Positions 1,055-17,798 of a stretch of 64,000 bases of DNA are shown here, in pieces (position 1 is the first letter of the stretch; each line of letters starts with the position of its first letter). Origin of the DNA: a phage; sequence record NC_135731.1. One strand, 5' to 3'. The notes under the pieces were generated by a model, which saw nothing but the letters and a program-made list of their open reading frames with translations, was not told the DNA's origin and searched no databases. Made by a program: the position numbers and the translations under genes.

Positions 1055-3127
1055 TTATGAGAAGTCTGGCGGGACAACATCTTCTACATACCCTTTCAGA
1101 GCAACCTGCCCCATATGAAGCACGGTAGAATCTCTGGCGGTAACAGTGATGCTGTCAGACATTACTTGCGGGTATGCCCACACATACTGTTTTACCTCAG
1201 GGTATCTATACTCTATGGTTGCCATGTTTCCGCAGATACATCTCCATAAAAATTCTTGGTAATTCCTGGTTGGGTCGTAGCCATATACCGGAGCAAGCTC
1301 TTTGCTAGGAACGAACCCTGCAAGGTATTGTATTTCAGACGGTTGCCAACCTAACTTAACGATAGGTATGTTTACAGACTCTTTTGCCTTTTCAATACCT
1401 CCCTGCATCACCCAATCGTAGCACTCGGTGCAGAAGAAATCAAGAGCACCTGCTTCCTTTTTATATTGGTCAGCAAGGTTCAGCTTTTGCGTAAGCTCGG
1501 TTTCCATGATGGTTGGGAAAAACAGCAAAGCTGTCATCTGAGCTGATGCAGCGTGTGCCTTTATTGCCTTTGAAATAGCCGCAATACGAGCGCCAAGCTT
1601 ACCACGACAAAATGCTACATACTTGTCGTAAACACCGCCAGTTTTAGGATCGTCAATAGTCCCAATATCTAATGCATACTCACCTGTCTCATCATAAAAC
1701 GCCTGCTTTGTAGGGTAATCATAAATACAAGGTCTACGAGTATCGGTATTGTACCACCACCACGGTTCACCAACCTGCATAATCACTGGCAGGTTGTTTC
1801 TCATAGCGGCTGATGCAAAATTCTTAAATACTGCAGTAAGGAAATTCATACCCTCTTCAATGGTTGGAGACAGGAGGTAGCTACAGGGTGTATACCCTGT
1901 TTTAGCGTAGTTATCGTTCCAGTCTCTTTGGGTCCATTCCAACGGGCAGGCATCGCTGAAAAGCTCAAAACTTACAGATTGCATAACGTCGAAGTTATGT
2001 CGTTTGGCATTGTACATAAAATCATCATGCCATTTATAAGCTGCAGCGTTTAGCGCCCCTGTTCTGTTTATAGACCATTGGGTTCCTGACCATGTGTAGT
2101 CATAATAATGACTCATACCAACATAATGGTTTATGGTTCCGGTATAGCCCAGACGCTTGATATTGTTCAACACCCTTAAAGGAGATACGTTCCACATATC
2201 GTCATATGCGGTGCAGATCCCAACGTCGTGCTCTTTAACCTGAATATTGTTAAGTTGCATCATTTTCCAACCCGTGTCTGGCTGAAGCAGATCTAGGCGC
2301 AACTCACACTCTACATTTTCCGTTCTCGGGTCTGTGCTATTACTTACCCAGTCTTTAGGCATAAGCGGTATTAAAATCCTTCTCACCTGCCGAGGATCAA
2401 CACCCATCATGTTGTTGTTCTGATCCATCCCGACGCAGTCCTCGAAATCAATATGAATCTCTGCAACATTCTTATCCTCTGAGATGCTGACAGCATATTG
2501 AGCTAAAGGAACATAGATGATTGTGCCATCAACAAGGTCTACAGTCATAATCATCTTTTCAGGAGTGGAGAAGTTGCTGGCATTGGTTATTGACATTCTG
2601 AACCAAAGCTTGGTGTTTCTCATCTCGTAGTGATCATCAAACCCAATACCGAAATGGTCATACTTGTCAACTGTTTCCCAAATGCACCCAGCCATACCTC
2701 CATATGTTCTTGACACTAAACGGTTAATACAACAGTTGTTATCTGCAACAATACAGGTACTTTCAGTCTGCTGAGTAGTTGTAACCCAATATCTTGGGTG
2801 AAACATTCTCTCCTCAACAGTATCCCAAGATATCCTGTCAAGATTCTCATCTGAAACTATTGTACATTTCGACCTTTGTGTTCCAATCATCACCCCTTGA
2901 GATTTTGATGAAAACTCCATAAAGAAGCTTCTTGGCAACCTGTTGGGTAATTTGTCAACAATTTCTACGGGGATCTCAATACTGGTTGCCCCAATTGGGA
3001 TAGTTACATCGCCCTCAACATGATTATAATCCCTACCAGGAACGGCAGTATCCTGAACTGTGCGGTAATGAAACTGTGCAGCCATTGTAGAGTAATCACG
3101 GTAAGGTTTAAAAACAGCTGTTGCCAT
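1055..3127 (-). CDS. large virion structural protein, function unknown
   Basis: 690-aa ORF inside tail/baseplate block; start codon overlaps stop of upstream gene at nt 3127 (translational coupling); no catalytic motif recognised. Confidence 0.35.
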   Translation of the reverse strand: MATAVFKPYRDYSTMAAQFHYRTVQDTAVPGRDYNHVEGDVTIPIGATSIEIPVEIVDKLPNRLPRSFFMEFSSKSQGVMIGTQRSKCTIVSDENLDRISWDTVEERMFHPRYWVTTTQQTESTCIVADNNCCINRLVSRTYGGMAGCIWETVDKYDHFGIGFDDHYEMRNTKLWFRMSITNASNFSTPEKMIMTVDLVDGTIIYVPLAQYAVSISEDKNVAEIHIDFEDCVGMDQNNNMMGVDPRQVRRILIPLMPKDWVSNSTDPRTENVECELRLDLLQPDTGWKMMQLNNIQVKEHDVGICTAYDDMWNVSPLRVLNNIKRLGYTGTINHYVGMSHYYDYTWSGTQWSINRTGALNAAAYKWHDDFMYNAKRHNFDVMQSVSFELFSDACPLEWTQRDWNDNYAKTGYTPCSYLLSPTIEEGMNFLTAVFKNFASAAMRNNLPVIMQVGEPWWWYNTDTRRPCIYDYPTKQAFYDETGEYALDIGTIDDPKTGGVYDKYVAFCRGKLGARIAAISKAIKAHAASAQMTALLFFPTIMETELTQKLNLADQYKKEAGALDFFCTECYDWVMQGGIEKAKESVNIPIVKLGWQPSEIQYLAGFVPSKELAPVYGYDPTRNYQEFLWRCICGNMATIEYRYPEVKQYVWAYPQVMSDSITVTARDSTVLHMGQVALKGYVEDVVPPDFS

Positions 3128-5421: not shown

Positions 5422-8400
5422 TTAGTCGTGAGACTCGTTCCAAGGTCCCTGGAAGCTTGAGTTAGAACGACTAACGATCACAGTGGGACAGGAGATTGTG
5501 ACACTTGTCACGTTTGACGTTGACCACGGGGTGTAGATTTCAATAATAATGTCTATAGTTTGTTCACCTAGACCTGTTATCCCAATTGCACACATGCCAT
5601 CGTTGTCGTTTCCGTACTTCTTGCCAGCAAGGAGTTGATGACCAGCTATCCACGCATTTAGTTGGGAGTTGGCACGAGTACCTTTCAGTTTAAAGAAGAA
5701 TGTTACGTTCTTACCTTGACCTGAAACGTTATCTACGTATCTCCACCTCCAACGGCAAACCCTCTGCTGGGAGTTATGCACTGGAGCACAATCTCCGTAA
5801 GTCCTGTGTGCAACAATTGCACCTTCGAACTGGTTAGCACGGATAACAGAAGCTTCTACACGACCACGGAATGTACCTCCGGTTGCATCTATGGTACCTC
5901 TAAAGCTACCATTATTGGCATAAACATCTCCACGGAAGGTACCACTAGTGGCATTAACTGCCCCTGTGAAGTTACCAGAACTGGCGTTGATGTTGCCTTT
6001 CACCCACACATCCATAAATTGGGCATGCCCGTTCTTGTTAATATACCAACCGTATTTATGGTACCCGTTGCCATCGTAGTTGTTTGACGAAATTTCTTGT
6101 GCGATCTTGGCAGAGGAGATCGTGCCATTCTCTATAAAAGCGTCTTTCAAGAACGCTTGGTTGTTCTTGATTGCGAAAGCAAGGGTTGCTGTTCCATTTC
6201 CGGGGTTATATACCGCAAAGTTGTTTGCACTAACCATGAAGTATGATTGAACTTGTCCTCCAGACCCCTCCATGCCCAGCTGGATACCTGCCACATATTT
6301 ATTACCATGGCTGTCAACCTGAATCTTAGCTCCCCACTGAGCATCTATTTTACCCTCAAGTGTTGTTACAGCTTTAGAGGTATTAGATACTGTAGCCCTG
6401 AGCTCATCAATATTACCCATTTCGTCAACAATTTCTTGTTTTGCAGAGGTAAGTTCTTGACGGATCGCTGTGGCTGTATTATTAACAAGATCAACTGTTG
6501 TACTATTAGTTTCTTGAATAGATGCTTGCAGATTGGCAACCTCTTTCTGCACATCATCTTCCAGCTTGGTGATCTTCCCTGTAGCTGCCACCAGATCCTG
6601 CTTAATAGCTTCCGTTGTCTTATTTAGCAGATCGGTTGTTGCCTTGTTGGTTTCTTGAATAGAGGAGTTAAGTTTGCTCTCAGTGTTCTTCAACTCTTCC
6701 CGCAGAGTACCTTGAGTTGCAGTTATTTGCTCACTCAATGCTTGAGTTTTACGATTAACGAGATCAACGGTTGATCTATTTGTTGTCTCGATTAGTGACC
6801 CAAGCCTACCAGACTCTGCTGCAAGTTTATCGTCAAAGGATTGCTGAGCTGCTACCAGCTTACTGTTAAGGGCAGAAATTTCTCCATTAACCCCTGTAAA
6901 TTTTTCTGTCGTCTCTCTGACAACACCCTCTATTGTATCCCCAAGCTCTTCAAAAATGCTAGTAACACGGTCATTGACTGCACCAACATTTTTATCCATT
7001 TCCTTGACTGCATTATCAAGATTGGCGGTAAGCTCTTTATAAGTCTCTGTCTTTTTGAACTCAGCATCAATCTGTGGCATAAGATCTTCTATGGATGTGT
7101 AACAGCGGGCTGCACACTCCACAAAAGCAGATGAACCAAAAGCATTTGTTGTCCTGATATACCAGTAATAAATCTTATCGTTCTGCAGACCTTCAGATGT
7201 CCAAGTTGAACCAACACCCATACGAGTGGCTTTTGAAGTAACTGTTACATCACTGGTATCTGGCAATCTTGTCATCCCAGATGTCCAAAAGTCGTACTGG
7301 GTGCTTACACTAGCCAAGTCTCTGCTGTGCGGGATCAGGGTAATAGCAAAGTATCCCTGTTTAACCTCCACAGAAACAGGAGCTTCAGGTGCCTGAATGT
7401 TGAACTCACAATATGCTTCCGGAGATACGCCACCTTTATAAGATGTTGCAACCACGGTTGCTGTGTATGACCCCTTGGTCAAGCCTTCTACTCTGACAAA
7501 CTGCTCAACTGTTTGTGCTGTCCAAACAATCTCTCCGTTCTTTCTTACCTGCACAATATTTTGAGCGTAGGTCCCAACGTTGTCCCAAGCCAAAACACCG
7601 TGAGTTACTTCTCCAGCTTGGAGAACGGAATATCTGAAGTTTTGCGGTTGAGCTATACCAGATGGAGATATTGGAATATCTACATCACCAGAATCCGGAA
7701 GTTGACCCGTGGCATCATTCCACTCTTTAGCATCTTGACGAAGTTTTACCTTGACGCCACCCTTTTTGGTAAACTCCCATTCAAGAACTCTCATTTCTTG
7801 GCCCACTATACCAATACTTGGGAGGTCCATCGTAACGTAACGACCAGGTTTAAATTTGAAACCTCGCATATTGCAGGTGACTTCAATAATCCTACCAGCT
7901 CTGGCACGTCTTAGGAAGATTGCAGAAACACGCTGAGCTTGATAAGGACTGGTAACAAAACGATAGTCTATATCGATTATCTTTCTTTCTCCATCCTTCT
8001 CTATCCACTCTGGGACAAACACTGATGGAAAATCTGTTTCAGAATATCCTTTGGTCGGACTAGTGAATCTGCCAGTTATTGTGTTGGATCTTTTGTCAAA
8101 TGAGGCTTCCGGATAGATCTTTACCTCACCACAGACACAATCCTCACTCAGTGTCATTGTTGCCGGGCCATAGTATGCACCAACCAGCAAACCATACTTA
8201 CCAGCTACATAGCTGAGATCTGCGCCACAAGCTTTCAGCATTTCTGCCATAATACTTGCTGGTGCCTCATCCATATCGAACTCGCCATTAATTGTGTAAC
8301 GGCGCTCACTGGTTCCGTCTGCGTTTTTTACCTCCTCGTCACATATGTTGGCAGCCTCCTTGAAGGACTCCCAGTTGATGGTTTCGTCAGGACATTTAAG

Positions 8401-9021
8401 GTATGTTCTTAAATAGTCCAGAATCACTAAGGCCGCGTTATTGGTATACACCTCTTTACTGATGCGAGGGTCATAGCATTTTTTACCAACCTTGACCAGT
8501 GTAACGTTTGGCAACCCAAAAGGAAACTTATTAGGGTCAAACTTGAAGCTGGCACGCAGCCAACTGATCCCTCTACCTATCATATCTGGTGACCACGATG
8601 GGCAGTGTGTACCCATGAAAGGATCAGATGTTTTTCTGTCGTTATGTAGCTCCCACGATACCAGATCTCCATACGAGGAAATAGGATTACCGTCGATGAG
8701 TATGTCTTCTATACCTTCCAGAGGATGATTAGCAAGAACAATGGCACAATGGAGGGTTCTGTCTCTGTCCTGCTCCAAAAACGCAAGCAGCCCAGACGTG
8801 CGTGTCTTTCCATACACTACAGAGCAGGGTGCAGCAGAAGATCTGAGAAGCTTTTGTCTATCTTGCTGACTTCTGTAAGATTTGTTGCCCTCAAAAATCT
8901 TATCCAGAGTTCTGGTGGTAACAGTGTTCAGGCTGTCAGCCAGAGCTGCCTTGGATGCGTTCCAGTCATAGCTTGAAGATCTTGCAGAAGCAACGATGTT
9001 ATCAATCATTGCAATTGGCAT
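5422..9021 (-). CDS. large tail fibre / host-specificity protein
   Basis: 1199-aa ORF with central coiled-coil heptad-like repeats (LNSSIQETN..., LQASIQETN...) and C-terminal short repeats (SGNFTGAVNATSGTFRGDVYANNGSFRGTIDATGGTFRG) typical of fibre shafts. Confidence 0.5.
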   Translation of the reverse strand: MPIAMIDNIVASARSSSYDWNASKAALADSLNTVTTRTLDKIFEGNKSYRSQQDRQKLLRSSAAPCSVVYGKTRTSGLLAFLEQDRDRTLHCAIVLANHPLEGIEDILIDGNPISSYGDLVSWELHNDRKTSDPFMGTHCPSWSPDMIGRGISWLRASFKFDPNKFPFGLPNVTLVKVGKKCYDPRISKEVYTNNAALVILDYLRTYLKCPDETINWESFKEAANICDEEVKNADGTSERRYTINGEFDMDEAPASIMAEMLKACGADLSYVAGKYGLLVGAYYGPATMTLSEDCVCGEVKIYPEASFDKRSNTITGRFTSPTKGYSETDFPSVFVPEWIEKDGERKIIDIDYRFVTSPYQAQRVSAIFLRRARAGRIIEVTCNMRGFKFKPGRYVTMDLPSIGIVGQEMRVLEWEFTKKGGVKVKLRQDAKEWNDATGQLPDSGDVDIPISPSGIAQPQNFRYSVLQAGEVTHGVLAWDNVGTYAQNIVQVRKNGEIVWTAQTVEQFVRVEGLTKGSYTATVVATSYKGGVSPEAYCEFNIQAPEAPVSVEVKQGYFAITLIPHSRDLASVSTQYDFWTSGMTRLPDTSDVTVTSKATRMGVGSTWTSEGLQNDKIYYWYIRTTNAFGSSAFVECAARCYTSIEDLMPQIDAEFKKTETYKELTANLDNAVKEMDKNVGAVNDRVTSIFEELGDTIEGVVRETTEKFTGVNGEISALNSKLVAAQQSFDDKLAAESGRLGSLIETTNRSTVDLVNRKTQALSEQITATQGTLREELKNTESKLNSSIQETNKATTDLLNKTTEAIKQDLVAATGKITKLEDDVQKEVANLQASIQETNSTTVDLVNNTATAIRQELTSAKQEIVDEMGNIDELRATVSNTSKAVTTLEGKIDAQWGAKIQVDSHGNKYVAGIQLGMEGSGGQVQSYFMVSANNFAVYNPGNGTATLAFAIKNNQAFLKDAFIENGTISSAKIAQEISSNNYDGNGYHKYGWYINKNGHAQFMDVWVKGNINASSGNFTGAVNATSGTFRGDVYANNGSFRGTIDATGGTFRGRVEASVIRANQFEGAIVAHRTYGDCAPVHNSQQRVCRWRWRYVDNVSGQGKNVTFFFKLKGTRANSQLNAWIAGHQLLAGKKYGNDNDGMCAIGITGLGEQTIDIIIEIYTPWSTSNVTSVTISCPTVIVSRSNSSFQGPWNESHD

Positions 9022-9458
9022 TAATACCTCCAGACATCAACAACGATAGAATCTTTCATGTCGAACATAAAGACCCCTTTATCACCTTTCGCCCAAATCT
9101 GGTTGTTCCAGAACACACCAGCGGTGAGCCCGTTCAGACCCTCGAAGATAACAATATCGCCACGCTGAACCTGTTTAGGAGTATCTAGTCGAGTCATAAA
9201 GAGATCAAAAATAGTAGGTAGGTGTGTGGTTTTGAAACGGAGCATGCACCATCTTTTGCTTTCCAACTCTGTTTTATACGTTCCTTCGAAGTTAGAAAGA
9301 AAATCTGTTCCGTATTGGGCATCAACACACTTGGCTGCAAAGGTGCAACAATCGTGGAATCCCCATTCAAAAGGTATGGTGGCCTCTTCGTCAAACACTT
9401 TCCACAATCTTTCTTGCCAATCTACTAAACGAGGATGTGTGCTCATTAAACCTCCCAA
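9021..9458 (-). CDS. hypothetical tail-associated protein
   Basis: 145-aa ORF, start overlaps downstream gene; Cys/His-containing segment (FHDCCTF) but no secure family assignment. Confidence 0.3.
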   Translation of the reverse strand: MGGLMSTHPRLVDWQERLWKVFDEEATIPFEWGFHDCCTFAAKCVDAQYGTDFLSNFEGTYKTELESKRWCMLRFKTTHLPTIFDLFMTRLDTPKQVQRGDIVIFEGLNGLTAGVFWNNQIWAKGDKGVFMFDMKDSIVVDVWRY

Positions 9459-10012
9459 ATGATCGGGCGGCTCGCCACCTGATCCACATATTTAAAAAAT
9501 CTGTCATTATCGTTTCTTGAGCTGTGGCTTTCCTCCGTGTACCGATAAGGAAAACCTCTTAACCAACTGTTGAAGATGGAAGAGATGGATATGGACAAAG
9601 CACTATTCTCACCTGTCTGAATAGCCATATCTGTTATAAGTCCGTCAAACAAGCCATTGGTTGTAACAGGCAGACCATTCTCCATAGCGGTAATGTACAA
9701 CGTGGCACGACAACCAGAATACTCCGTCTTCAGTAGATCACCAACATACTTAGGATCAAACCCGTTCAATGTTGCTACCACAGATCCGAAGTTGGTGGCA
9801 TCTTTCTCAGACACAGCAGTTAATGTTGCTGATCCACCTATCCCTATAAAATGTTGCCCCTCAATTACTACAACACCAGTGCCTGAGCACACCCTGACAG
9901 TCCCTGTCGGTAGCTCTAGCTTTGCAGCAATTAAGATCTCAACACCATCAAGCTCCAGCTTCTCAAGAAATAAATTATCTAATGGCGCTCTGATCATCTT
10001 AGAAATCCTCAA
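9446..10012 (-). CDS. hypothetical tail-associated protein
   Basis: 188-aa ORF in tail module, overlapping neighbours by a few codons. Confidence 0.3.
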   Translation of the reverse strand: MRISKMIRAPLDNLFLEKLELDGVEILIAAKLELPTGTVRVCSGTGVVVIEGQHFIGIGGSATLTAVSEKDATNFGSVVATLNGFDPKYVGDLLKTEYSGCRATLYITAMENGLPVTTNGLFDGLITDMAIQTGENSALSISISSIFNSWLRGFPYRYTEESHSSRNDNDRFFKYVDQVASRPIIWEV

Positions 10013-10589
10013 AGAAGGTGATAACTATATTATCACCTTTTTGCATAGCATCGACTTTTTGCTTAATTTTATAAATATCTCTGATATGAAACCTACCCTT
10101 TGGGGATTGAGTTATTATCTTCATAGTATCCCCTGCGGCAATAGGTTTTCTAAGTCTTGGAGATATGCTTATAACAGCAGACCCAACACCATCGCTGCGC
10201 ACTGGAGCTGTTACCACTTTCAACTCATCATTGACAGATATTTTATCCCCAGCTCTGGCTATGTCTCTGTTTGGCTCCCACCCAACCGTCTTCAAAAAAT
10301 CGTCGTTACCGGTAGGCCCAAGGGCGATTGGCTCATTAGCTGTAACTGAGTGACCGTAAGTTTTAATAAGAAAGATGTTTCCATCTTTATACACCTGATC
10401 AACAAAACTCTTAAGTTCCAGCAGCTGAGACTCGCTGATATTTGAAACCGTCAGAGTGCCTTTCCAGTTAGGTGTGGCATAGGTTACTTTTTGCGTTTTA
10501 CCTGTAAACGGACTTTTAAACGTAACAATATCTGCCAGCAGCTCCAATCTAATATCTGGAAGATATCTAGGCCTTTCCCATAAAAACAT
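9999..10589 (-). CDS. hypothetical tail-associated protein
   Basis: 196-aa ORF downstream of the long tail fibre gene. Confidence 0.3.
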   Translation of the reverse strand: MFLWERPRYLPDIRLELLADIVTFKSPFTGKTQKVTYATPNWKGTLTVSNISESQLLELKSFVDQVYKDGNIFLIKTYGHSVTANEPIALGPTGNDDFLKTVGWEPNRDIARAGDKISVNDELKVVTAPVRSDGVGSAVISISPRLRKPIAAGDTMKIITQSPKGRFHIRDIYKIKQKVDAMQKGDNIVITFFEDF

Positions 10590-10650: not shown

Positions 10651-10682
10651 ACAAACAAAAAGCCCCCGCCGAAGCGAGGGCA
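10651..10682 (-). terminator. intrinsic terminator (minus strand)
   Basis: hairpin with UUCG loop that is fully paired only on the minus strand (a G-U wobble there is a C-A mismatch on plus), followed by UUUUUGUUUGU; directly after stop of 10689..14495. Confidence 0.6.
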
Positions 10683-10688
10683 AAACAG

Positions 10689-13600
10689 TTACTTCAGTTT
10701 CTCTTGCAACCCAGCAACAACCTCTGTCAATTTTTTAACCTGCTCCTCAAGGGCGGTTATTTTATCGTCCTGTTCCCTGCAAACCTGGACAAGCAAGCCT
10801 GTTACAGCTGCGTAATCCACGCTGTAGAATCTTTCCTCTGTTATTAAAGGAGTTCCATCCTGATCAGGGTTTGGGATTTCCTTTCTTTGCACGAAAGAGC
10901 TAACTGCTTCCGGCAGCGCTTCAAGCACTTCTTGTGCTATAACACCTGCATAAGGCATACCGTTCTCTTTAAGAGTGTAAGTATAACCCTTCATCTTCCG
11001 GATAGCTTCTAACGCATCAGGAATAACAGATATGTTATCTTTCAGGTCTCTGTCAGAACTCTGATTGACAGATGTGCAATTCACAGCACCGTTTACAGAA
11101 AGATATCTTGATTTATCCGGCAAGGTACCGCAATGCCATACCCAATTTGCTTGAGACTCGTCACGAACCTTAAACTCTAACACGTTTGGACGATCCCCTG
11201 TGCTGCCGTTACCCCAATAATGGAGTACAGCATCATCCTTGGGTAAGCCATCTGCGTTGGAGGGAAGACCATTAGCACCGATATGAATTTCCAGTTGATT
11301 ACTGGTTTCACCAAAAATGTGATTAGGTCTTAACTGAATGCCCTTACCAGCATCGTGTCTCCATTCTTCCCAAGTAAAGACATCGCCAACGTAGTTACCA
11401 GCACGAGTATATCTGTCACCAAAATAGGTGATATATTCCTGCACACAACCTTGAGGTCTGTTAGCTGTGTTTTTGTAAACAAGCAGTGTACCAGCGTACG
11501 GAGCAGGGTAGTGGCGATCTGTTACAAGTGCGTCAGCGTTTGAACCCTGGTGATAGAAACCTTCACGGCTACCATCGTAGTCATTAAGGTCTTCTGTCCC
11601 TAGACCTTGACCACGGTGCTGAATAACTTTGTTCCACGCCCTGTGGTTTCCCTGCTCTATGGAACGAGTGTACAACTGGTCTAAACGACCTGCCATCTGG
11701 AAAGCGTAGTTTCCAGAAAATGCCACAGACAGTCCGCCAACAACCATTGAACCTTCAGGTCCGTTGACGTTGCCAGCCAGTATTTTGGATGGGTTGTTAG
11801 GCCCAAACTGGTTGTTCCAGTCTGCACCCGTATGACATACAAAACCACCTGGTGCCGAGAAAGTACCATCTTTGTTGAAATTGTAGAATCTGTGAGCAGA
11901 ACCTACAACATCACGAACAATAACTTGACCAGCCTCTGGAGTAGATCTGAACTCTGCCTGACCTTTGAGACCAGCACCATTACCGCATTTGGAGGTAAAC
12001 GTACCGTTAGTCAGATCCTCTGTCCCATCTGATGCACACTGGAAGCCTGCATTAGAGAATAACGCCTTTCTAGGACTGCCGTAGCACAAATAGTCAAGAC
12101 CGTCGGCGCATAGCTCGACTTTTGGCATATTCATTTTGCTCATCACAGCATAGCGTTCAGCAGTGCCTATATAGTGCCACTGTGTGCCGCCACCAGTGTA
12201 GAACCCTGAAGTCCCTTTGAAGTCAACAATAGGTCTGGTGTTGGTATTATTATCTCCAAGAACAGCAAGATTCAAATCTGCTGACTGGAGAGGTGCAACG
12301 AACTTAACACCGTCCTGATTGTCTGTTACAGAGCCAACCTGGTAATCTTGCTCCCTGGTAAACACCTCGACAACATTTCTACTTGCGTATATGCTGACAG
12401 GGAAAGCACGCGCCTCTGCATAGAAAGCAACATATTCTTGTTTACCCCTTGTTGGAGCAACCATCCCAAGAAGTGCTTTTTCATTCTGGTAGAAATTTAC
12501 TACCCCGTAGAAAGAGTCTCCTCTGTCTGTCCAACCACCAGTTCTATAGTGACACTGCAGAGTCGCACAGTTCATAGGGTCACTGCCGGATGACGATCTG
12601 GTAACTATGGTAATATCAGTGCCAGTTGCTGGAGCATAGTACGGATCTGTTCTGACGATAATTGGGTAGTATTTCCCATCTTCCATCCCTGCGGTTCTTG
12701 GCAGTGTTAAGAAGTCTTTTACACCTGCTGCTATAGGAACTTTGAACAGATTCTGAGCATCTGCTAAAGTTGTGGCCCCAGTACCACCTGCGGCGTGAGG
12801 TAAAGGTTCCCACTTGGCCTTCCGGTTGTTATAAACACCCCATTCCAGAGTGCCGTTACCGGATTCATCCATCCCGCCATCCCAGATGACCATCTTGGCG
12901 GCTTTCTTGGATCCCCAGAAGCCTCTTTCTGCTCCTGAACTGCGGATCCACTCTCCAAGTCCCCAGTTTGTCAGCTGACCAGTAAGATCCCCAACCTGCA
13001 TGTATTTAGGACAATCTAAGACCCCATCCTCACGGAATCCTAAATATCTATGAGTTTCAGATCCTTTTGCGCCTTTGTGCAGGTGGATTGTCAACCAAGC
13101 TTTGTTATCGTTCCTTACCTCAGAGTAAATCCTATACCCATGCTCAAGGACACCATCAGCGCTGTATTTGTCTCCGTTAACAATACCTGATGCTGACTTA
13201 ACATCAGCAGAACTTTGAGACAGGTAAAGGTGACCGAAGGTAGGGGAGTTTCTAGACCCGAGACCGATGTGCGCTCTAAAGGTCTCATCGTTACGAGGTC
13301 TGACCATCGGCTGCCATGCAGTCCACTGATTTGTGTCGGCCTGATAGGTTCTCAAATACCAAACATCTACGTTAGAGAATGGATAGTATTCCTGACGACA
13401 ACCTGTACCGCCGTTAGCATTGTTCTGCCAAACAATCAAGTGACCAGCACCAGAACCTGCAGGGTATCCATTTGCCTCAGTTGCATAAGCAGTCATTGGC
13501 TGGTAGTATACACCATCCTGATTACCAGTCAAGTTATTGATATTGAAATTTGGCTCAAGGGCTGCACGTTGCTTATAGAAAGCACCGATATTGATACGGA

Positions 13601-14495
13601 TTCCAGCGGCATCTCTAGCCCCTGTGCCGCCCTGCTCTATAGCAAGAGGCTGCCAAGAAGCTGTTTGTTGGTTCCACATACCCCAACGGCCTGTTGCATC
13701 AAGCTGCAAGTACCCTGCCGTGTTTAAATCATCTCCAGCACGGATAACTGTTCTTGTTGGATTATTTGCCTCTAGGCGTTTAAATTCATCACGAAGTGCT
13801 ATTCTTTTTGTTGTTGCTACACCGTTGGTTACTGCGATGGTATACATTGCTCCGGAGGTAGCTCCACGGAAAATACCATCAACAGTTGTAGTATCACGAC
13901 GAGATACCACACCGTTCAGAAATTTTTCACCAGCTGCTACAGAAGGATAGTTGGTGGTTCTTCCCTCTTCAATAACTGCAGGGCCAACAAAGTTATCAAG
14001 GTGGATAACATCGCCTACAGTGTGCACTGTACCAAAATCTACACGCTGTGCAAGTGCTTTAGCATCGTTAGCTGTCTGAACAGTAACATCCATTACATCC
14101 TGGACAGACTGACCTTCAGCTGTCATAATCATGGATGCGCCAATGGTAGATTCCAGCTCCTCTCTCAATGATGGATCTGTATATACCATCCATGCAGCGT
14201 CAGTAATCCCACCATCGGAGTACGGTGAAGACAATGCAGGAACAGTGTGCGGAAATTCGCCTTTCCAACGCAGGTAGAGGTCTTCCTCTTCGAAGTAGGC
14301 AAAATCCATTGGGCCGTTTAACTTACCACCTTCCTTAAAGGAGATTACATGAGAAACAGTCCCATCCACATGGACAACATCGCCAATTTTTACACGACGG
14401 GTCAGGTCTGGTTGTTGAACAACCAGGTAATCATCCTCTGTCACTGCGGTAGTGGCAGGAAGAGATTCAATTCTGACAACTTTAATATCAGCCAT
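10689..14495 (-). CDS. long tail fibre with C-terminal intramolecular chaperone (peptidase S74-like) domain
   Basis: 1268 aa; C-terminal ~120 aa show the auto-cleaving chaperone signature (SSDRDLKDNISVIPDALEAIRKMKGYTYTLKENG...) followed by a coiled coil; N-terminal ~110 aa homologous to the 222-aa protein at 17130..17798. Confidence 0.8.
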   Translation of the reverse strand: MADIKVVRIESLPATTAVTEDDYLVVQQPDLTRRVKIGDVVHVDGTVSHVISFKEGGKLNGPMDFAYFEEEDLYLRWKGEFPHTVPALSSPYSDGGITDAAWMVYTDPSLREELESTIGASMIMTAEGQSVQDVMDVTVQTANDAKALAQRVDFGTVHTVGDVIHLDNFVGPAVIEEGRTTNYPSVAAGEKFLNGVVSRRDTTTVDGIFRGATSGAMYTIAVTNGVATTKRIALRDEFKRLEANNPTRTVIRAGDDLNTAGYLQLDATGRWGMWNQQTASWQPLAIEQGGTGARDAAGIRINIGAFYKQRAALEPNFNINNLTGNQDGVYYQPMTAYATEANGYPAGSGAGHLIVWQNNANGGTGCRQEYYPFSNVDVWYLRTYQADTNQWTAWQPMVRPRNDETFRAHIGLGSRNSPTFGHLYLSQSSADVKSASGIVNGDKYSADGVLEHGYRIYSEVRNDNKAWLTIHLHKGAKGSETHRYLGFREDGVLDCPKYMQVGDLTGQLTNWGLGEWIRSSGAERGFWGSKKAAKMVIWDGGMDESGNGTLEWGVYNNRKAKWEPLPHAAGGTGATTLADAQNLFKVPIAAGVKDFLTLPRTAGMEDGKYYPIIVRTDPYYAPATGTDITIVTRSSSGSDPMNCATLQCHYRTGGWTDRGDSFYGVVNFYQNEKALLGMVAPTRGKQEYVAFYAEARAFPVSIYASRNVVEVFTREQDYQVGSVTDNQDGVKFVAPLQSADLNLAVLGDNNTNTRPIVDFKGTSGFYTGGGTQWHYIGTAERYAVMSKMNMPKVELCADGLDYLCYGSPRKALFSNAGFQCASDGTEDLTNGTFTSKCGNGAGLKGQAEFRSTPEAGQVIVRDVVGSAHRFYNFNKDGTFSAPGGFVCHTGADWNNQFGPNNPSKILAGNVNGPEGSMVVGGLSVAFSGNYAFQMAGRLDQLYTRSIEQGNHRAWNKVIQHRGQGLGTEDLNDYDGSREGFYHQGSNADALVTDRHYPAPYAGTLLVYKNTANRPQGCVQEYITYFGDRYTRAGNYVGDVFTWEEWRHDAGKGIQLRPNHIFGETSNQLEIHIGANGLPSNADGLPKDDAVLHYWGNGSTGDRPNVLEFKVRDESQANWVWHCGTLPDKSRYLSVNGAVNCTSVNQSSDRDLKDNISVIPDALEAIRKMKGYTYTLKENGMPYAGVIAQEVLEALPEAVSSFVQRKEIPNPDQDGTPLITEERFYSVDYAAVTGLLVQVCREQDDKITALEEQVKKLTEVVAGLQEKLK

Positions 14496-14530
14496 TCTTT
14501 CTCCTGAAAGGGGGCAAACAGCCCCCTATG

Positions 14531-17128
14531 TTAAAGGTACAATCCACGGTATTGAGCATAAAGGCCCAGACCGCGAAGGATTTCGCCAGAGTGATAGCCA
14601 ACCGGATCAGAAACTGCCCAGCAGCCGTTTAAAACATTATCACCATTGATGAAGTGGTGCTTTTGCAGTAGCTTCACACAGGCCTCTACAACAATATCTA
14701 TTTGAGGTATTGTCTCTGAATACCCGCACAGACCTAGCCAGCAGCAACCTGCAAGCCATTCACCTACCACCCACATCCTGTCTCCTCTGTCCTGATAAGA
14801 ATATCCCCCCGAGGTGTTAAAGTCTGTAGGTAGATTTCCTGAATGAGATGACTGGAATCTGTTGAGGAACCATGCCCATTTCTGGCAGAACAGGAATAGT
14901 CTTTCATCAACAGGTTCTTTATGTTTCTTGAGCTCATATATTGTGCGGCACGCAGCAACAAAAGATCTTGACTGGAGCTTAGAGTTATCTACCATCTCCC
15001 ACCAACCAGTCAGCCCTTCATTACCTCTTTGCCATACATAACGTGAGGCAACTGGACCCTCTGTCTTAAATGTATTATTATACCAGACTTGAGCGTCATA
15101 CAGAAAGCCTATTGTATTTGACAATCTATGGCGATCTATGTTTTCTGCACCCATGCAGTATACTGCTGGGTATTGCATGCCTGGGTAGGGCCAATTTGGC
15201 CTTTCCTCTAAGAGATAGTTTTCCTTATCTATCACCTTTCCGGCAGGGAACACACCTGGTGTGTGCCTGTATGCACCTTGCTTGTAGTTTCTGACATAGC
15301 AATCGCCAACCTTAGCGGTTGATTCTGTCTTGCTTGCCATCCACACGCTAAACCAGATTAGATAAGCATCCCTATCTGCAATATAGAATTGCGGCAGCGT
15401 GTTGACGCAATACAGATCAAACAAGCCATTACCTATCTGCCTGTCGCTTAGGCTGAAATCTACAGAGGTGAGTCCCTTAGGATTAGCAAAGAAAGGTTTA
15501 ATCTCTTCTTCAGTGTGATGAGGTTGTGTCGGATCTAGTTTGAAATCTCCTAGAGTAAGAGTTTCTGTTATCCATTGTCCATTAGTGGCATATAGATCAG
15601 CATACCATAACCACCTGTCTTTGTCAAGAAATTTGACCCTTACCATCTCATCATCTGATCGATAAGTTACTGAGTTTAAAGAAATCTCTCTTCCAAAATT
15701 GAAAGTTACTTTGCCTCTTGCTATATTACAACGGGTGAAGTTGTCAGAGTGGTTGTAAATGTCAGTATCGTACTGCATACTAACACTGGCACCACCGCTC
15801 ACGGCAATATTTTCCTCTTTAGGTAAGAGGTACGGATTACCGTCTTTACCAACTACCTCTACGAAATCAGTAACCTTGGCAACTATTTCTGTTACCTCTG
15901 CCCCTCCAAAAGGAACCCCTATCCTGTACTGTTTTTTGTTATTGTTGCCATCATTAAGGATGAAATGTGGCTGGAACAGAACCCCTTCTCCTCCGAAATT
16001 CATAACAATTTCAGCATCTCTGCCTATTTTATATGTAGTCCCTTTTTGAATTATTTCGCAAGGCTGGCGTGCGTTCATCCTAAAATTGATATACCCGTCA
16101 CTGTCCCTACTCATGACAGGAACTGTTCCTGCAACAAGACAAGTACCATCTGTGAACGGTGCCTTAATCAACGTGGTCTTTCTAAACAACTTGTCGTAGG
16201 CGTTTATATCACTGAAATTAAGCAACTTGTTGTAAGACTGTTTAAACGCGGTGTAATACTTTTCCTCACCTGTCAAGGTGTAGAGTTGATAACAAGCGTC
16301 ACACCACATTTCTTCCCCGTCCAACTCTGGGGCCTGATTATCTGCAACCACGTTTATAGGATTTACAATTACAGGGGATCCAGCAGGTATCACCGATCCA
16401 CCCTGCTCTTGAGGTAATCTTACACAATAGGTCACCTTGTGGCTTCCTGTAACACCCTTATCTTGTAATTGGATTGTGCCGAACTCTATAGACGTATGCC
16501 CACTGTCGGCTATGCTCCCGTTAGCCCAATAGCGGTTACCATCCCATGCTATGTACCACTCAACCCACCAACTTAATCCTGATGTTGTCCAATCTGGGTT
16601 AGCATCTGTGCCACCGTAAACATCAGAGTCTACAGTGTTTCTTCCTAACACACCGTTATACGCTTGGAATGCCTTGTCCAGGTATTCCCCCCATGTCGGA
16701 GCTCCCGCTGGGATTTTTCCTCTACCGTTGGTAAAAGACACCACCACATCTTTAAACCCACCGTGTGATGGAACCCCATCTGTGGATAGAGGGTAGTGGG
16801 ACAATCTTTGCATTTTACTTTCTACGGCATATGCACCCAGAAGATGACTATTGTAAGCTTCCCAAGCATCTTTTGCCCTATCCAGATAGAAATCGCTTTT
16901 CGATGCCCTGTATGCTTCAATGTATCCCAGAATCAACACAGCTTGGGACTCATGCATTGCCCAATCGTTATTTATCTTATTACCTGCCCACCCTGCAGCT
17001 ATAAGACCATCAGGGTTTACTAGCTTATTTTGTGTAGGTGTGTTGGTAATACCTGTGTTGTTATCGAGGCACTTCCTGTGCCCCTCAATCATCTGAAATA
17101 CGTTATCAATGTTGTGTTGAATACGCAT
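14531..17128 (-). CDS. large virion protein, possible carbohydrate-active (depolymerase-like) tail protein
   Basis: 865-aa ORF immediately downstream of and overlapping the 222-aa anchor-domain protein (start 17128, upstream stop 17130); helix-rich N-terminal part gives a weak impression of an (alpha/alpha) toroid glycosidase; not verified. Confidence 0.35.
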   Translation of the reverse strand: MRIQHNIDNVFQMIEGHRKCLDNNTGITNTPTQNKLVNPDGLIAAGWAGNKINNDWAMHESQAVLILGYIEAYRASKSDFYLDRAKDAWEAYNSHLLGAYAVESKMQRLSHYPLSTDGVPSHGGFKDVVVSFTNGRGKIPAGAPTWGEYLDKAFQAYNGVLGRNTVDSDVYGGTDANPDWTTSGLSWWVEWYIAWDGNRYWANGSIADSGHTSIEFGTIQLQDKGVTGSHKVTYCVRLPQEQGGSVIPAGSPVIVNPINVVADNQAPELDGEEMWCDACYQLYTLTGEEKYYTAFKQSYNKLLNFSDINAYDKLFRKTTLIKAPFTDGTCLVAGTVPVMSRDSDGYINFRMNARQPCEIIQKGTTYKIGRDAEIVMNFGGEGVLFQPHFILNDGNNNKKQYRIGVPFGGAEVTEIVAKVTDFVEVVGKDGNPYLLPKEENIAVSGGASVSMQYDTDIYNHSDNFTRCNIARGKVTFNFGREISLNSVTYRSDDEMVRVKFLDKDRWLWYADLYATNGQWITETLTLGDFKLDPTQPHHTEEEIKPFFANPKGLTSVDFSLSDRQIGNGLFDLYCVNTLPQFYIADRDAYLIWFSVWMASKTESTAKVGDCYVRNYKQGAYRHTPGVFPAGKVIDKENYLLEERPNWPYPGMQYPAVYCMGAENIDRHRLSNTIGFLYDAQVWYNNTFKTEGPVASRYVWQRGNEGLTGWWEMVDNSKLQSRSFVAACRTIYELKKHKEPVDERLFLFCQKWAWFLNRFQSSHSGNLPTDFNTSGGYSYQDRGDRMWVVGEWLAGCCWLGLCGYSETIPQIDIVVEACVKLLQKHHFINGDNVLNGCWAVSDPVGYHSGEILRGLGLYAQYRGLYL

Positions 17129-17129
17129 C

Positions 17130-17798
17130 TTAGATAGCTCCTGCGATAATCAGTGCCCCGTACCAAGTTAACCCGTTGTCGTAGGTTTCCAACTTGAAAA
17201 TGTCTGTTGCACCAGCTGTAAATGTTAGGATAGGATCTCTTCCGTAGGACCATTTAACATTACCAGGCCAATAGACTTTGTTGCCGCCAGAGGTCTGAGT
17301 AATGCATACGGTTATAGTTCTCGCCACCCCTTCAAGACCTTCTGTTTGATTTTCAAAAGAGATTGTGGTATTTGAAGTTAGTCGAACCTTAAAGGTATCC
17401 GCAACTTCAAGATCCATATCAAGCTGACCACCGATAGATCCGTAATCAACTATTCTGCCAGAAGAAGTTGCAGCAAGCTCACCAAAAACAGACCAGGCGT
17501 TTGCAGACACACCCCCAGCACCCTCTACAGTGGAGTCTGGGAGGATTATTTTAGGATAATCCCCGTTCCACGTGTAGTAGCGCTTAGTTTCTGGATCATA
17601 AGCAAAGTCCTTCTTGCTCTTAAGATAACCACCCTCTGTGAAATAGACTATTTTAGTAATGCTGAGATCGTTGACAACATCATCAATCTTAGCCTTTCTT
17701 GTCCCATCAGTCTGGTTGACAACCAAGAAGTCATCACTCAGGACTGTTTCTGCATCTTCAAGATCTGGAATTGGTATTGTAGGATAAGCTACAGCCAT
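17130..17798 (-). CDS. receptor-binding-protein anchor-domain protein
   Basis: 222 aa; N-terminal ~110 aa align with the N-terminus of the 1268-aa fibre (DDFLVVNQTDGTRKAKIDDVV / DDYLVVQQPDLTRRVKIGDVV; FTEGGYL..DFAY / FKEGGKL..DFAY). Confidence 0.5.
   Translation of the reverse strand: MAVAYPTIPIPDLEDAETVLSDDFLVVNQTDGTRKAKIDDVVNDLSITKIVYFTEGGYLKSKKDFAYDPETKRYYTWNGDYPKIILPDSTVEGAGGVSANAWSVFGELAATSSGRIVDYGSIGGQLDMDLEVADTFKVRLTSNTTISFENQTEGLEGVARTITVCITQTSGGNKVYWPGNVKWSYGRDPILTFTAGATDIFKLETYDNGLTWYGALIIAGAI

Follow-up and report, generated by a model that had tools for sequence, protein, structure and literature searches.

A Vequintavirus (rV5-like) phage of E. coli probably carries two baseplate-attached receptor-binding devices built on one docking module, and in the second of them a 222-aa adaptor would mount an 865-aa glycosidase-type protein, the two forming a portable cassette. 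We give this reading a probability of roughly two in three. The DNA analysed, hereafter the window, is a stretch of 64,000 nucleotides from record NC_135731.1 and is 100% identical to Escherichia phage phiWec196.

In the mechanism that we propose, the docking module common to both devices would consist of an N-terminal peptide of ~45 aa (N-peptide) and, after it, a Tail_spike_N domain. Device 2 would be made of two proteins, the adaptor being fixed to the baseplate by its docking module and holding the 865-aa protein by its C-terminal domain of ~95 aa (C-domain). The 865-aa protein, which lacks an attachment domain, would bring a predicted (α/α)6 glycosidase-type barrel with β-sandwich insertions, parts that would attach to a conserved surface glycan and probably cleave it. 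The C-domain and the barrel protein would represent an old portable cassette in which phage types change only the N-terminus of the adaptor to fit their tails.

Organization of the Locus

The open reading frames of the 222-, 865-, and 1268-aa proteins have exactly the coordinates first given to them in an earlier sequence-only reading, and all three lie on the minus strand (Table 1). The 865-aa gene is located in the baseplate gene block, with the sheath initiator on one side and wedge genes on the other. At the position matching the hairpin that ends the gene block, a terminator is annotated in phage Murica. The apparatus had been described as a dual-receptor one, which is too low a count, as vequintaviruses have about seven fibre or spike proteins each.

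An ATGA overlap had also been read at 17128..17130, where none exists. The minus strand reads ...GCAGGAGCTATC TAA G ATG CGT..., in which the stop codon occupies 17132..17130 and is separated from the ATG (17128..17126) by one spacer base, 17129. The 222-aa and 865-aa genes thus abut without overlap, and they would probably be translated together.

Table 1. Features of the receptor-binding locus; positions are those of the window.
Feature	Position	Strand	Evidence
222-aa adaptor protein	17130..17798	-	ORF; PHROG 7760 'tail fiber protein', E=8e-120; equivalent of rV5 gp43 / PVP-SE1 gp51 / phi92 gp140
N-peptide of adaptor, aa 1-45	17664..17798	-	17/36 residues identical to fibre N-terminus
Tail_spike_N (PF18668) sub-domain of adaptor, aa 46-105	17484..17663	-	Pfam match; PDB sequence matches
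Conserved C-terminal ~95-aa domain of adaptor, aa 125-220	17139..17426	-	tblastn; distant-locus comparison; Asp-box-like motif
AGGAG ribosome-binding site of 865-aa gene	17138..17142	-	Sequence read; within 3' end of adaptor gene
865-aa protein without anchor	14531..17128	-	ORF; equivalent of rV5 gp42 / phi92 gp141
1268-aa mosaic lateral tail fibre	10689..14495	-	ORF; PHROG 6578; rV5 gp41 equivalent
N-peptide + Tail_spike_N docking module of fibre, aa 1-105	14181..14495	-	BLASTP vs adaptor; Pfam PF18668
C-terminal intramolecular chaperone domain Peptidase_S74 of fibre, aa 1147-1268	10692..11057	-	Pfam; S-D-R-D-L-K motif at start
Terminator-like hairpin at end of gene block	10662..10681	-	8-bp stem, 7 G-C pairs, then T-run

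A Proposed Docking Module Common to the Adaptor and the Fibre

The proposed homology between the N-termini of the 222-aa and 1268-aa proteins was confirmed over ~105 residues by BLASTP (E=4e-18; 38/99 identical residues, 38%; aa 8-105 of the former against aa 7-105 of the latter), and no further alignment was found between them. Both N-termini contain the Tail_spike_N family PF18668 above its curated gathering cut-off of 25 bits, with 41 bits in the 222-aa protein (E=2.1e-10, aa 51-105) and 40.5 bits in the 1268-aa protein (E=2.9e-10, aa 46-103). In the PDB, the adaptor sub-domain matches N-terminal segments of CBA120 TSP1, TSP3, and TSP4 and G7C gp63.1 in sequence. Among the window's ORFs of 50 aa or longer, no other protein carries the Tail_spike_N module; the 865-aa protein matches it neither in Pfam nor in this search, in line with the earlier description of it as anchorless.

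The docking module is also swappable, as had been supposed, since the adaptor-type N-terminus heads the colanidase of PVP-SE1 and the endosialidase of phi92. The adaptor N-terminus matches the colanidase tailspike gp49 of PVP-SE1, which occupies the syntenic position, with E=2e-24, and the GenBank annotation of gp49 already records an N-terminal similarity to rV5 gp43. The N-peptide is kept without Tail_spike_N in the 157-aa phi92-like adaptor (muut gp023) and in phi92 EndoN92 gp143 (E about 2e-6 to 2e-8). Judged from these alignments, the N-peptide of the adaptor is most likely the baseplate-docking element, and it may be the true anchor, rather than Tail_spike_N, because the phi92-like adaptor retains it without that sub-domain. 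The variety of distal domains found on one N-terminus at syntenic positions in PVP-SE1 and phi92 is indirect evidence for a putative role of Tail_spike_N as a virion-attachment or branching domain.

Device 1 would be the 1268-aa mosaic fibre, whose C-terminal chaperone domain, as called in the sequence-only reading, is detected by Pfam as Peptidase_S74 (aa 1147-1198 of 1268; 51.1 bits, E=1.7e-13; curated cut-off 22 bits) and should first direct folding of the trimer and then release itself by cleavage. In this family, a Ser...Lys motif (S-D-x-x-x-K) defines the cleavage site, and S-S-D-R-D-L-K at aa 1146-1152 of the fibre fits this motif at the start of the domain. The corresponding domain of phi92 EndoN92 is annotated as a cleaved chaperone. 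Among vequintaviruses, the fibre is only 87-94% identical and has alternative C-termini, and its central and distal parts show 35-37% identity to siphovirus lateral fibres.

Genomic Pairing of the Adaptor C-Domain with the 865-aa Protein

A tblastn search of phage records found the C-domain in ~523 of them and the 865-aa protein in ~524. Grouped by the first word of the record's name, the numbers for C-domain and large protein were 239/242 for Escherichia, 101/101 for Salmonella, 33/33 for Erwinia, 23/23 for Campylobacter, 12/12 for Cronobacter, and 58/62 for Vibrio. The distant loci examined, 14 in number and with myo-, sipho-, and podoviruses among them, all had the C-domain (E 1e-29 to 1e-41) at the extreme C-terminus of the protein encoded directly upstream of the large protein, with intergenic gaps of -56 to +9 nt. 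The N-terminus of the adaptor was observed to change with the virion type: Phage_T7_tail in an autographivirus, phage_tail_N in a siphovirus, a collagen-like sequence in a Vibrio phage, and Tail_spike_N here. In the T7-like phages Atoyac13 and ISAO8, the adaptor of ~270 aa alone has the T7 tail-fibre N-domain within the part of the tail genes that was fetched, and the large protein thus has no other obvious anchor there. The 865-aa protein starts with a conserved helix of its own. An anchorless protein is in this way encoded beside a small anchor-bearing one, with anchors specific to the lineage, which is the arrangement of an adaptor-mounted complex, and the C-domain is put forward as the putative docking site for the 865-aa protein. 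We infer the physical binding of the two proteins and its stoichiometry.

The pair had been interpreted as a tailspike split into two polypeptides, a wording that implies a recent division. A receptor-binding protein made of two polypeptides is strongly supported by comparison of phages, through the strict co-occurrence of the pair and its adjacency in the 14 distant loci, and agrees with the presence of both proteins in rV5 virions. A recent split is not supported, since in almost all of the best 150 of 286 representative clusters the large protein opens at its own residue ~1-20 and carries no anchor. The two-gene layout, being found in myo-, sipho-, and podoviruses, is rather ancestral, and the wide pairing together with an adaptor N-terminus that varies with the virion type points to an old portable cassette.

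The pairwise identities of the C-domain vary together with those of the large protein (Mantel r=0.49, p about 4e-4); a correlation with the large protein also exists for the N-terminal parts of the adaptors (r=0.37), so that part of this co-variation reflects shared phage ancestry. Three homologues of the large protein (P0037, P0038, and P0044) have an N-terminal extension of ~270 aa and may be natural fusions, because the extension ends in a weak C-domain-like motif; the support for fusion is slight (hmmsearch E=3e-4 in P0038; hhalign E=0.03 over only 17 columns). In P0037, the large-protein family is joined to a deacetylase receptor-binding module of the N4 gp65 type.

The BASEL label of the 222-aa homologue, 'sialidase domain protein', would imply a BNR β-propeller or sialidase. 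This assignment was rejected: one Asp-box-like motif is present (aa ~205-212) instead of the repeated Asp-boxes of a multi-bladed propeller, the ~95-aa C-domain is too small for a propeller, BNR reached 13.6 bits in a homologue against a cut-off of 27, and the sialidase matches in the PDB had E about 3.

Predicted Fold of the 865-aa Protein

The predicted model of the 865-aa protein contains a glycosidase-type (α/α)6 barrel, a six-hairpin α/α barrel interrupted by two β-rich insertions, which span aa ~100-265 and aa ~330-613. The earlier description of a helix-rich, possibly glycosidase-like N-terminal part is imprecise, as N-terminal, middle, and C-terminal segments are predicted to build the barrel together. 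No Pfam or NCBIfam family reached threshold with the 865-aa protein, including any GH family, the best GH match being Glyco_hydro_76 in the homologue P0003 (16.8 bits, cut-off 25.9), and phmmer returned no match in the PDB. Identity to (α/α)6-barrel glycoside hydrolases and epimerases (GH8, GH76, GH88, GH105, cellobiose 2-epimerase) is only 10-13%, and the predicted barrel differs from theirs in being broken by the two large β-rich insertions. Conservation in 32-37 of 37 homologues was observed for five acidic residues (E60, D270, D502, D678, and E849), of which the model places E60 and D270 at helix starts. We infer a catalytic activity, with a glycan as the putative substrate. A review table lists phi92 gp141 as a 'glycosidase'; of the phage depolymerase candidates in the DepoScope survey, only about 1% had the α/α-barrel fold.

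Virion Data and Alternative Explanations

Mass spectrometry found rV5 gp41, gp42, and gp43 in virions (PMC3606486). The 2026 cryo-EM study of phi92 left fibre II, which was seen to join fibre I at its base, without a gene; only gp140 alone was tried, and it fitted no fibre density.

The authors of that study judged the AlphaFold3 model of gp140 to be fibre-like, and the 222-aa protein could be a complete miniature tail fibre with the C-domain as its receptor-binding tip, the 865-aa protein being attached elsewhere or a free enzyme that is merely co-transcribed. The C-domain indeed always lies at the extreme C-terminus, the usual place of fibre tips, and several PHROG 'tail fiber' families end in it. 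We nevertheless consider this explanation unlikely. In phages of unrelated virion types, either protein is nearly always accompanied by the other in the adjoining gene, no attachment domain can be recognised in the 865-aa protein, whose first element is a conserved helix of its own, the large protein of Atoyac13 and ISAO8 lacks another obvious anchor in the tail genes fetched, and rV5 gp42 is a virion protein. A gene directly downstream of a fibre gene is typical of fibre chaperones, and strict pairing with the C-domain would also be expected of a dedicated one; the 865-aa protein might thus be an assembly factor or a transient cap for a small fibre rather than a working part of adsorption. 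No known fibre chaperone resembles its family, which has lengths of 865-1157 aa, a full predicted (α/α)6 glycosidase-type barrel, and acidic residues that are conserved; its rV5 homologue is found in purified virions (PMC3606486), and the family is sometimes fused to a receptor-binding module, as in P0037, which makes such a role improbable. Least of all do we expect a purely structural baseplate component, as the location between the sheath initiator and wedge genes might suggest: the family also occurs in podoviruses and siphoviruses, both without a contractile-tail baseplate, the predicted fold is that of glycoside hydrolases, and the atomic model of the phi92 baseplate is complete without gp141.

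Taken together, the adaptor and the 865-aa protein might constitute a so far unrecognised and widely portable plug-in receptor-binding cassette, the ~95-aa domain being a docking platform for a glycan-processing protein that is not a β-helix and is probably monomeric, with phi92 gp140 and gp141 forming fibre II; we advance this combined reading only tentatively. The position of a gp140-gp141 fibre II at the base of fibre I would fit with the N-terminal docking peptide common to gp140 and the fibre I protein gp143.

Significance

Vequintaviruses and their phi92 and PVP-SE1 relatives owe their use in phage cocktails to a broad host range, and the proposed adaptor-plus-enzyme pair is a concrete candidate for the phi92 fibre that lacks a gene in the latest structure. 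The pairing also offers an annotation rule for about 500 phage genomes, in which the current labels are 'hypothetical', 'tail protein', or the misleading 'sialidase domain protein'. The anchor peptide, C-domain, and enzyme would form a natural modular interface that could serve to re-target phages across tail types, and the pair would add the rarely considered α/α barrel fold to the virion-borne glycan-processing proteins.

Comparison with Known Systems

The present locus is the rV5-type version of the 'Swiss army knife' apparatus of phi92, PVP-SE1, and rV5, gp41, gp42, and gp43 of rV5 corresponding to the 1268-, 865-, and 222-aa proteins. The published work covered here assigns gp42 and gp43 (phi92 gp141 and gp140) to no fibre, and they are proposed here to act as a pair.

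Shared or reused N-terminal attachment domains and the mounting of one protein on another are also known from TSP1-4 of CBA120 (Ackermannviridae) and from G7C, in which gp66 carries gp63.1, and the N-terminal domain described here is homologous in sequence to Tail_spike_N, which is named after TSP1 and Gp66. The carried proteins of CBA120 and G7C are trimeric β-helix or esterase spikes with N-terminal attachment domains of their own, whereas the protein carried here has none and is predicted to be an (α/α)6 barrel; the mount is an XD or gp10-like domain in those phages and would be a dedicated C-terminal domain of ~95 aa here. Binding between receptor-binding proteins has been established by experiment in CBA120 and G7C, while that between the adaptor and its carried protein is proposed here from gene and domain content.

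The podoviruses K1E, K1-5, and SP6-like phages likewise have a small tail-attached adaptor that bears a separately encoded enzymatic spike, and the phi92 cryo-EM paper describes the K1E and K1-5 fibres as an arm-like scaffold with an endosialidase bound at its end. The adaptor domains and the enzyme fold differ from those found here, and the cassette described in this work spans myo-, sipho-, and podoviruses, with the N-terminus of its adaptor matched to the type of tail.

Organization of the Locus

The genes of the 222-aa protein (adaptor), the 865-aa protein (barrel protein), and the 1268-aa fibre were all recovered as minus-strand ORFs where the sequence-only reading had placed them. Their rV5 counterparts, judged from synteny and the published numbering, are gp43 for the 222-aa, gp42 for the 865-aa, and gp41 for the 1268-aa protein, all of which were detected in rV5 virions by mass spectrometry (PMC3606486). 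The 7.1-kb region matched Escherichia phage phiWec196 (LC739542.1) at 100% identity and over 100 Vequintavirus (rV5-like) genomes at 90–98%. About 23–25 GenBank records of the MG0656xx series, named "Campylobacter phage" with Campylobacter jejuni as host, were also ~96–97% identical to 10689..17798, which probably reflects mislabelled hosts or contaminant records.

The ATGA overlap previously proposed for the adaptor and barrel protein genes was absent. The junction reads TAA-G-ATG, with an AGGAG nine bases 5' of the ATG of the 865-aa gene, within the adaptor gene, and a close coupling of the two genes without overlap is plausible. To one side of the three-gene block are the sheath-initiator, spike, and hub genes; to the other, a lambda-like tail-tip cluster and the wedge genes. 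This contractile-tail baseplate locus harbours a lambda-like tail-tip gene set between the fibre and wedge genes. A switch in the sign of the GC skew, with the cumulative-skew minimum, was observed near 44 kb and probably marks a change of gene orientation from the structural block to the next module.

Coordinates of the features of the window discussed in the text
Feature	Position	Strand	Remark
Adaptor (222 aa)	17130..17798	-	rV5 gp43
Adaptor C-domain	17139..17426	-	aa 125-220
Barrel protein (865 aa)	14531..17128	-	rV5 gp42
Fibre (1268 aa)	10689..14495	-	rV5 gp41
Distal-tail/gpM-like protein	9999..10589		lambda-like tail-tip set
gpL-like protein	9446..10012		lambda-like tail-tip set
DUF6950 protein	9021..9458		lambda-like tail-tip set
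1199-aa gpJ-like protein	5422..9021		lambda-like tail-tip set; Phage_Tail_Tip + Ig_J domains
Whole tail-tip set	5422..10589
690-aa deacetylase-type protein	1055..3127		NCTSP_N + TIM-barrel_NCTSP
GC skew switch	~43000..45000

A Shared N-Terminal Module, Probably for Docking

The proposed homology between the N-termini of the adaptor and the fibre was borne out by alignment (aa 8-105 versus aa 7-105, 38/99 identical, E = 4e-18), and the remainders of the two proteins gave no further alignment, as had been claimed. Both proteins passed the cut-off of Pfam Tail_spike_N (PF18668); the 865-aa protein lacks an anchor module of this type, in agreement with the earlier observation, and no other ORF of the window carries the shared module.

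This N-terminus consists of two separable parts, an N-peptide (~1-45, 17/36 identical between adaptor and fibre) followed by Tail_spike_N (~46-105, 21/62 identical). The phi92-like phage muut has a shorter adaptor of 157 aa, which lacks Tail_spike_N and in which the N-peptide runs straight into the C-domain. The N-peptide also heads the phi92 endosialidase gp143 (E about 2e-6), and phi92 gp151 contains Tail_spike_N but no N-peptide. PVP-SE1 has the full module on both its adaptor, gp51, and its colanidase tailspike, gp49 (E = 2e-24); gp49 occupies the position of the rV5 fibre gene, and its N-terminal similarity is already recorded in the GenBank note. In the three genera compared (Vequintavirus, Seunavirus, and Justusliebigvirus), the N-peptide was found on the adaptor and on one variable receptor-binding protein, and not on the other fibre or spike proteins compared. 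This distribution speaks for a shared docking element that can be exchanged, and these sequence comparisons suggest that the N-peptide is the actual anchor.

The fibre itself is a mosaic. Spikes of Ackermannviridae and podoviruses also contain its N-terminal domain, lateral fibres of unrelated siphoviruses share its central and distal parts at 35–37% identity, and the expected C-terminal chaperone domain was confirmed as Peptidase_S74 (51 bits), starting from an S-D-R-D-L-K motif at aa 1146-1152. No internal repeats were detected by self-BLAST. Fibre identity among vequintaviruses is only 87–94%, some alleles parting ways beyond aa 1047, whereas for the 865-aa protein identity is at least 97% in 119 records.

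A Conserved Two-Gene Cassette

Each query of the word-indexed homologue searches gave no more than 4-5 clusters, to which searching again with an alignment added none, so that an exhaustive HMM search was required; it yielded 286 representative clusters of the barrel protein family. In two distant clusters (~28% identity to the 865-aa protein), the gene directly upstream encodes a small protein whose last ~80 residues are 42–44% identical to the adaptor C-terminus and whose N-terminus is unrelated. A tblastn search of 50,697 phage records found the C-domain in 523 of them and the 865-aa protein in 524; the counts of organism names were nearly equal. Compared with these ~524 genomes, adjacency was inspected at 14 distant loci and in three additional records whose hits in the two tblastn searches could be paired by their coordinates. 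The 14 loci come from Rosemountvirus, Kolesnikvirus, two Melnykvirinae podoviruses, two Grimontviridae (Salmonella 7-11 and Vibrio Vp_R1), two siphoviruses with lambda-like tail tips, a further Vibrio phage, Justusliebigvirus, Seunavirus, a Pantoea phage, and two metagenomic contigs. At all 14, the C-domain forms the extreme end of the gene immediately 5' of the barrel protein gene (gaps of -56 to +9 nt), and the adaptor N-termini match the tail type (Phage_T7_tail, phage_tail_N, collagen-like, coiled-coil-like, or Tail_spike_N).

The sequence-only reading had interpreted the two genes as one tailspike split into two polypeptides. A recent split is not supported, since the large protein is anchor-free, starting at its own residue 1-20 in almost all of the best 150 of the 286 clusters, and the two-gene layout is recurrent. 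Taken together, the adjacency, the tail-type-matched N-termini, and these anchor-free starts argue for an ancient, mobile pair. A Mantel co-variation test was only a weak discriminator, because the adaptor N-termini correlate with the large protein too. Apart from the overlap, the earlier observation largely stood, and its interpretation was upheld in part and sharpened by the comparative evidence.

In the BASEL annotation, the adaptor is labelled "sialidase domain protein", apparently on account of a single Asp-box-like motif (T-Y-D-N-G-L-T-W) in its C-domain. The BNR profile scored only 13.6 bits on a homologue of the adaptor, against a cut-off of 27, and with this lone motif the sialidase reading was rejected; we consider the label misleading. 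No relatives of the C-domain were found in PDB or Pfam.

Predicted Fold of the 865-aa Protein

AlphaFold2 gave a poor model from a 5-sequence alignment (pLDDT 59) and a model with pLDDT 88.8 and pTM 0.84 from 37 sequences. The latter displays barrel helices at aa ~59-96, ~269-311, and ~655-862, with β-rich insertions at aa ~100-265 and ~330-613. No family-level match was found in Pfam, NCBIfam, or PDB searches, and in a profile search the family touched one hairpin of cellobiose 2-epimerase (E about 1e-3). The conserved acidic residues E60, D270, D502, D678, and E849 are compatible with catalysis but prove nothing. In one survey (DepoScope), α/α toroids accounted for about 1% of the phage depolymerase candidates. 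As to structural precedents, no such protein is among the fibres described in the cryo-EM papers on the Ounavirinae Sf14 and Bas63, and an Alteromonas fibre/chaperone paper was set aside as it concerns another module.

Several homologues were inspected for fusions or other anchors. The closest, P0004 and P0005, were rejected as adaptor-enzyme fusions, their insertions being internal and not N-terminal anchors. P0037, P0038, and P0044 carry ~270-aa N-extensions that are weakly C-domain-like (hmmsearch E = 3e-4; hhalign E = 0.03 over 17 columns) and may be natural fusions, the similarity being suggestive only. The metagenomic P0067 (293 aa) combines the first ~195 residues of the family with a following adaptor C-domain (E = 3e-18), a permuted or chimeric layout that is possibly an assembly artefact. 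The remote members P0084 and P0112 have ~120-175-aa N-extensions resembling, by eye, small tail-tip (gpM/distal-tail-type) domains, and some lineages may anchor their barrel protein directly. In the distant contig L004, the cassette is flanked by DUF7941 proteins (7010-7573 and 17075-17590), and P0038 has a weak DUF7941 match at its N-terminus (aa 36-146); DUF7941 may represent another type of anchor for the cassette.

Proposed Mechanism and Comparison with Known Systems

In the proposed mechanism, the adaptor, which is presumably a trimer, as are other proteins bearing such N-terminal modules, would dock at the baseplate periphery through its N-peptide and carry the barrel protein on its C-domain. 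The barrel protein would bind, and possibly cleave, a conserved glycan, and the neighbouring fibre would use the same docking solution to display variable tips. A metagenomic member of the barrel protein family, P0037 (1795 aa), continues at its C-terminal end into NCTSP_N and TIM-barrel_NCTSP, the N4 gp65-type deacetylase domains borne by a separate 690-aa protein in the window, and in phi92 the barrel protein and deacetylase genes are adjacent (gp141-gp142; L019:1-3756). This fusion and this adjacency hint at a common glycan target of the barrel protein and the deacetylase.

The assignment of genes to the individual fibres was described as unclear in the BASEL paper. In the 2026 structure of phi92, fibre I is gp143, fibre III is gp147, and fibre II, which joins the base of fibre I, could not be fitted by gp15, gp140, gp150, or gp151, each taken singly. 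Since gp140 (the adaptor equivalent) has its docking peptide in common with gp143 and is paired with gp141 (the barrel protein), a gp140+gp141 complex is a reasonable candidate for fibre II.

As far as our literature search reached, the conserved adaptor-plus-barrel cassette is undescribed. The shared anchor is already known and not new: the idea of a shared docking element was established in CBA120 and G7C, and the N-terminal domains of those phages show sequence-level matches to the ones described here.
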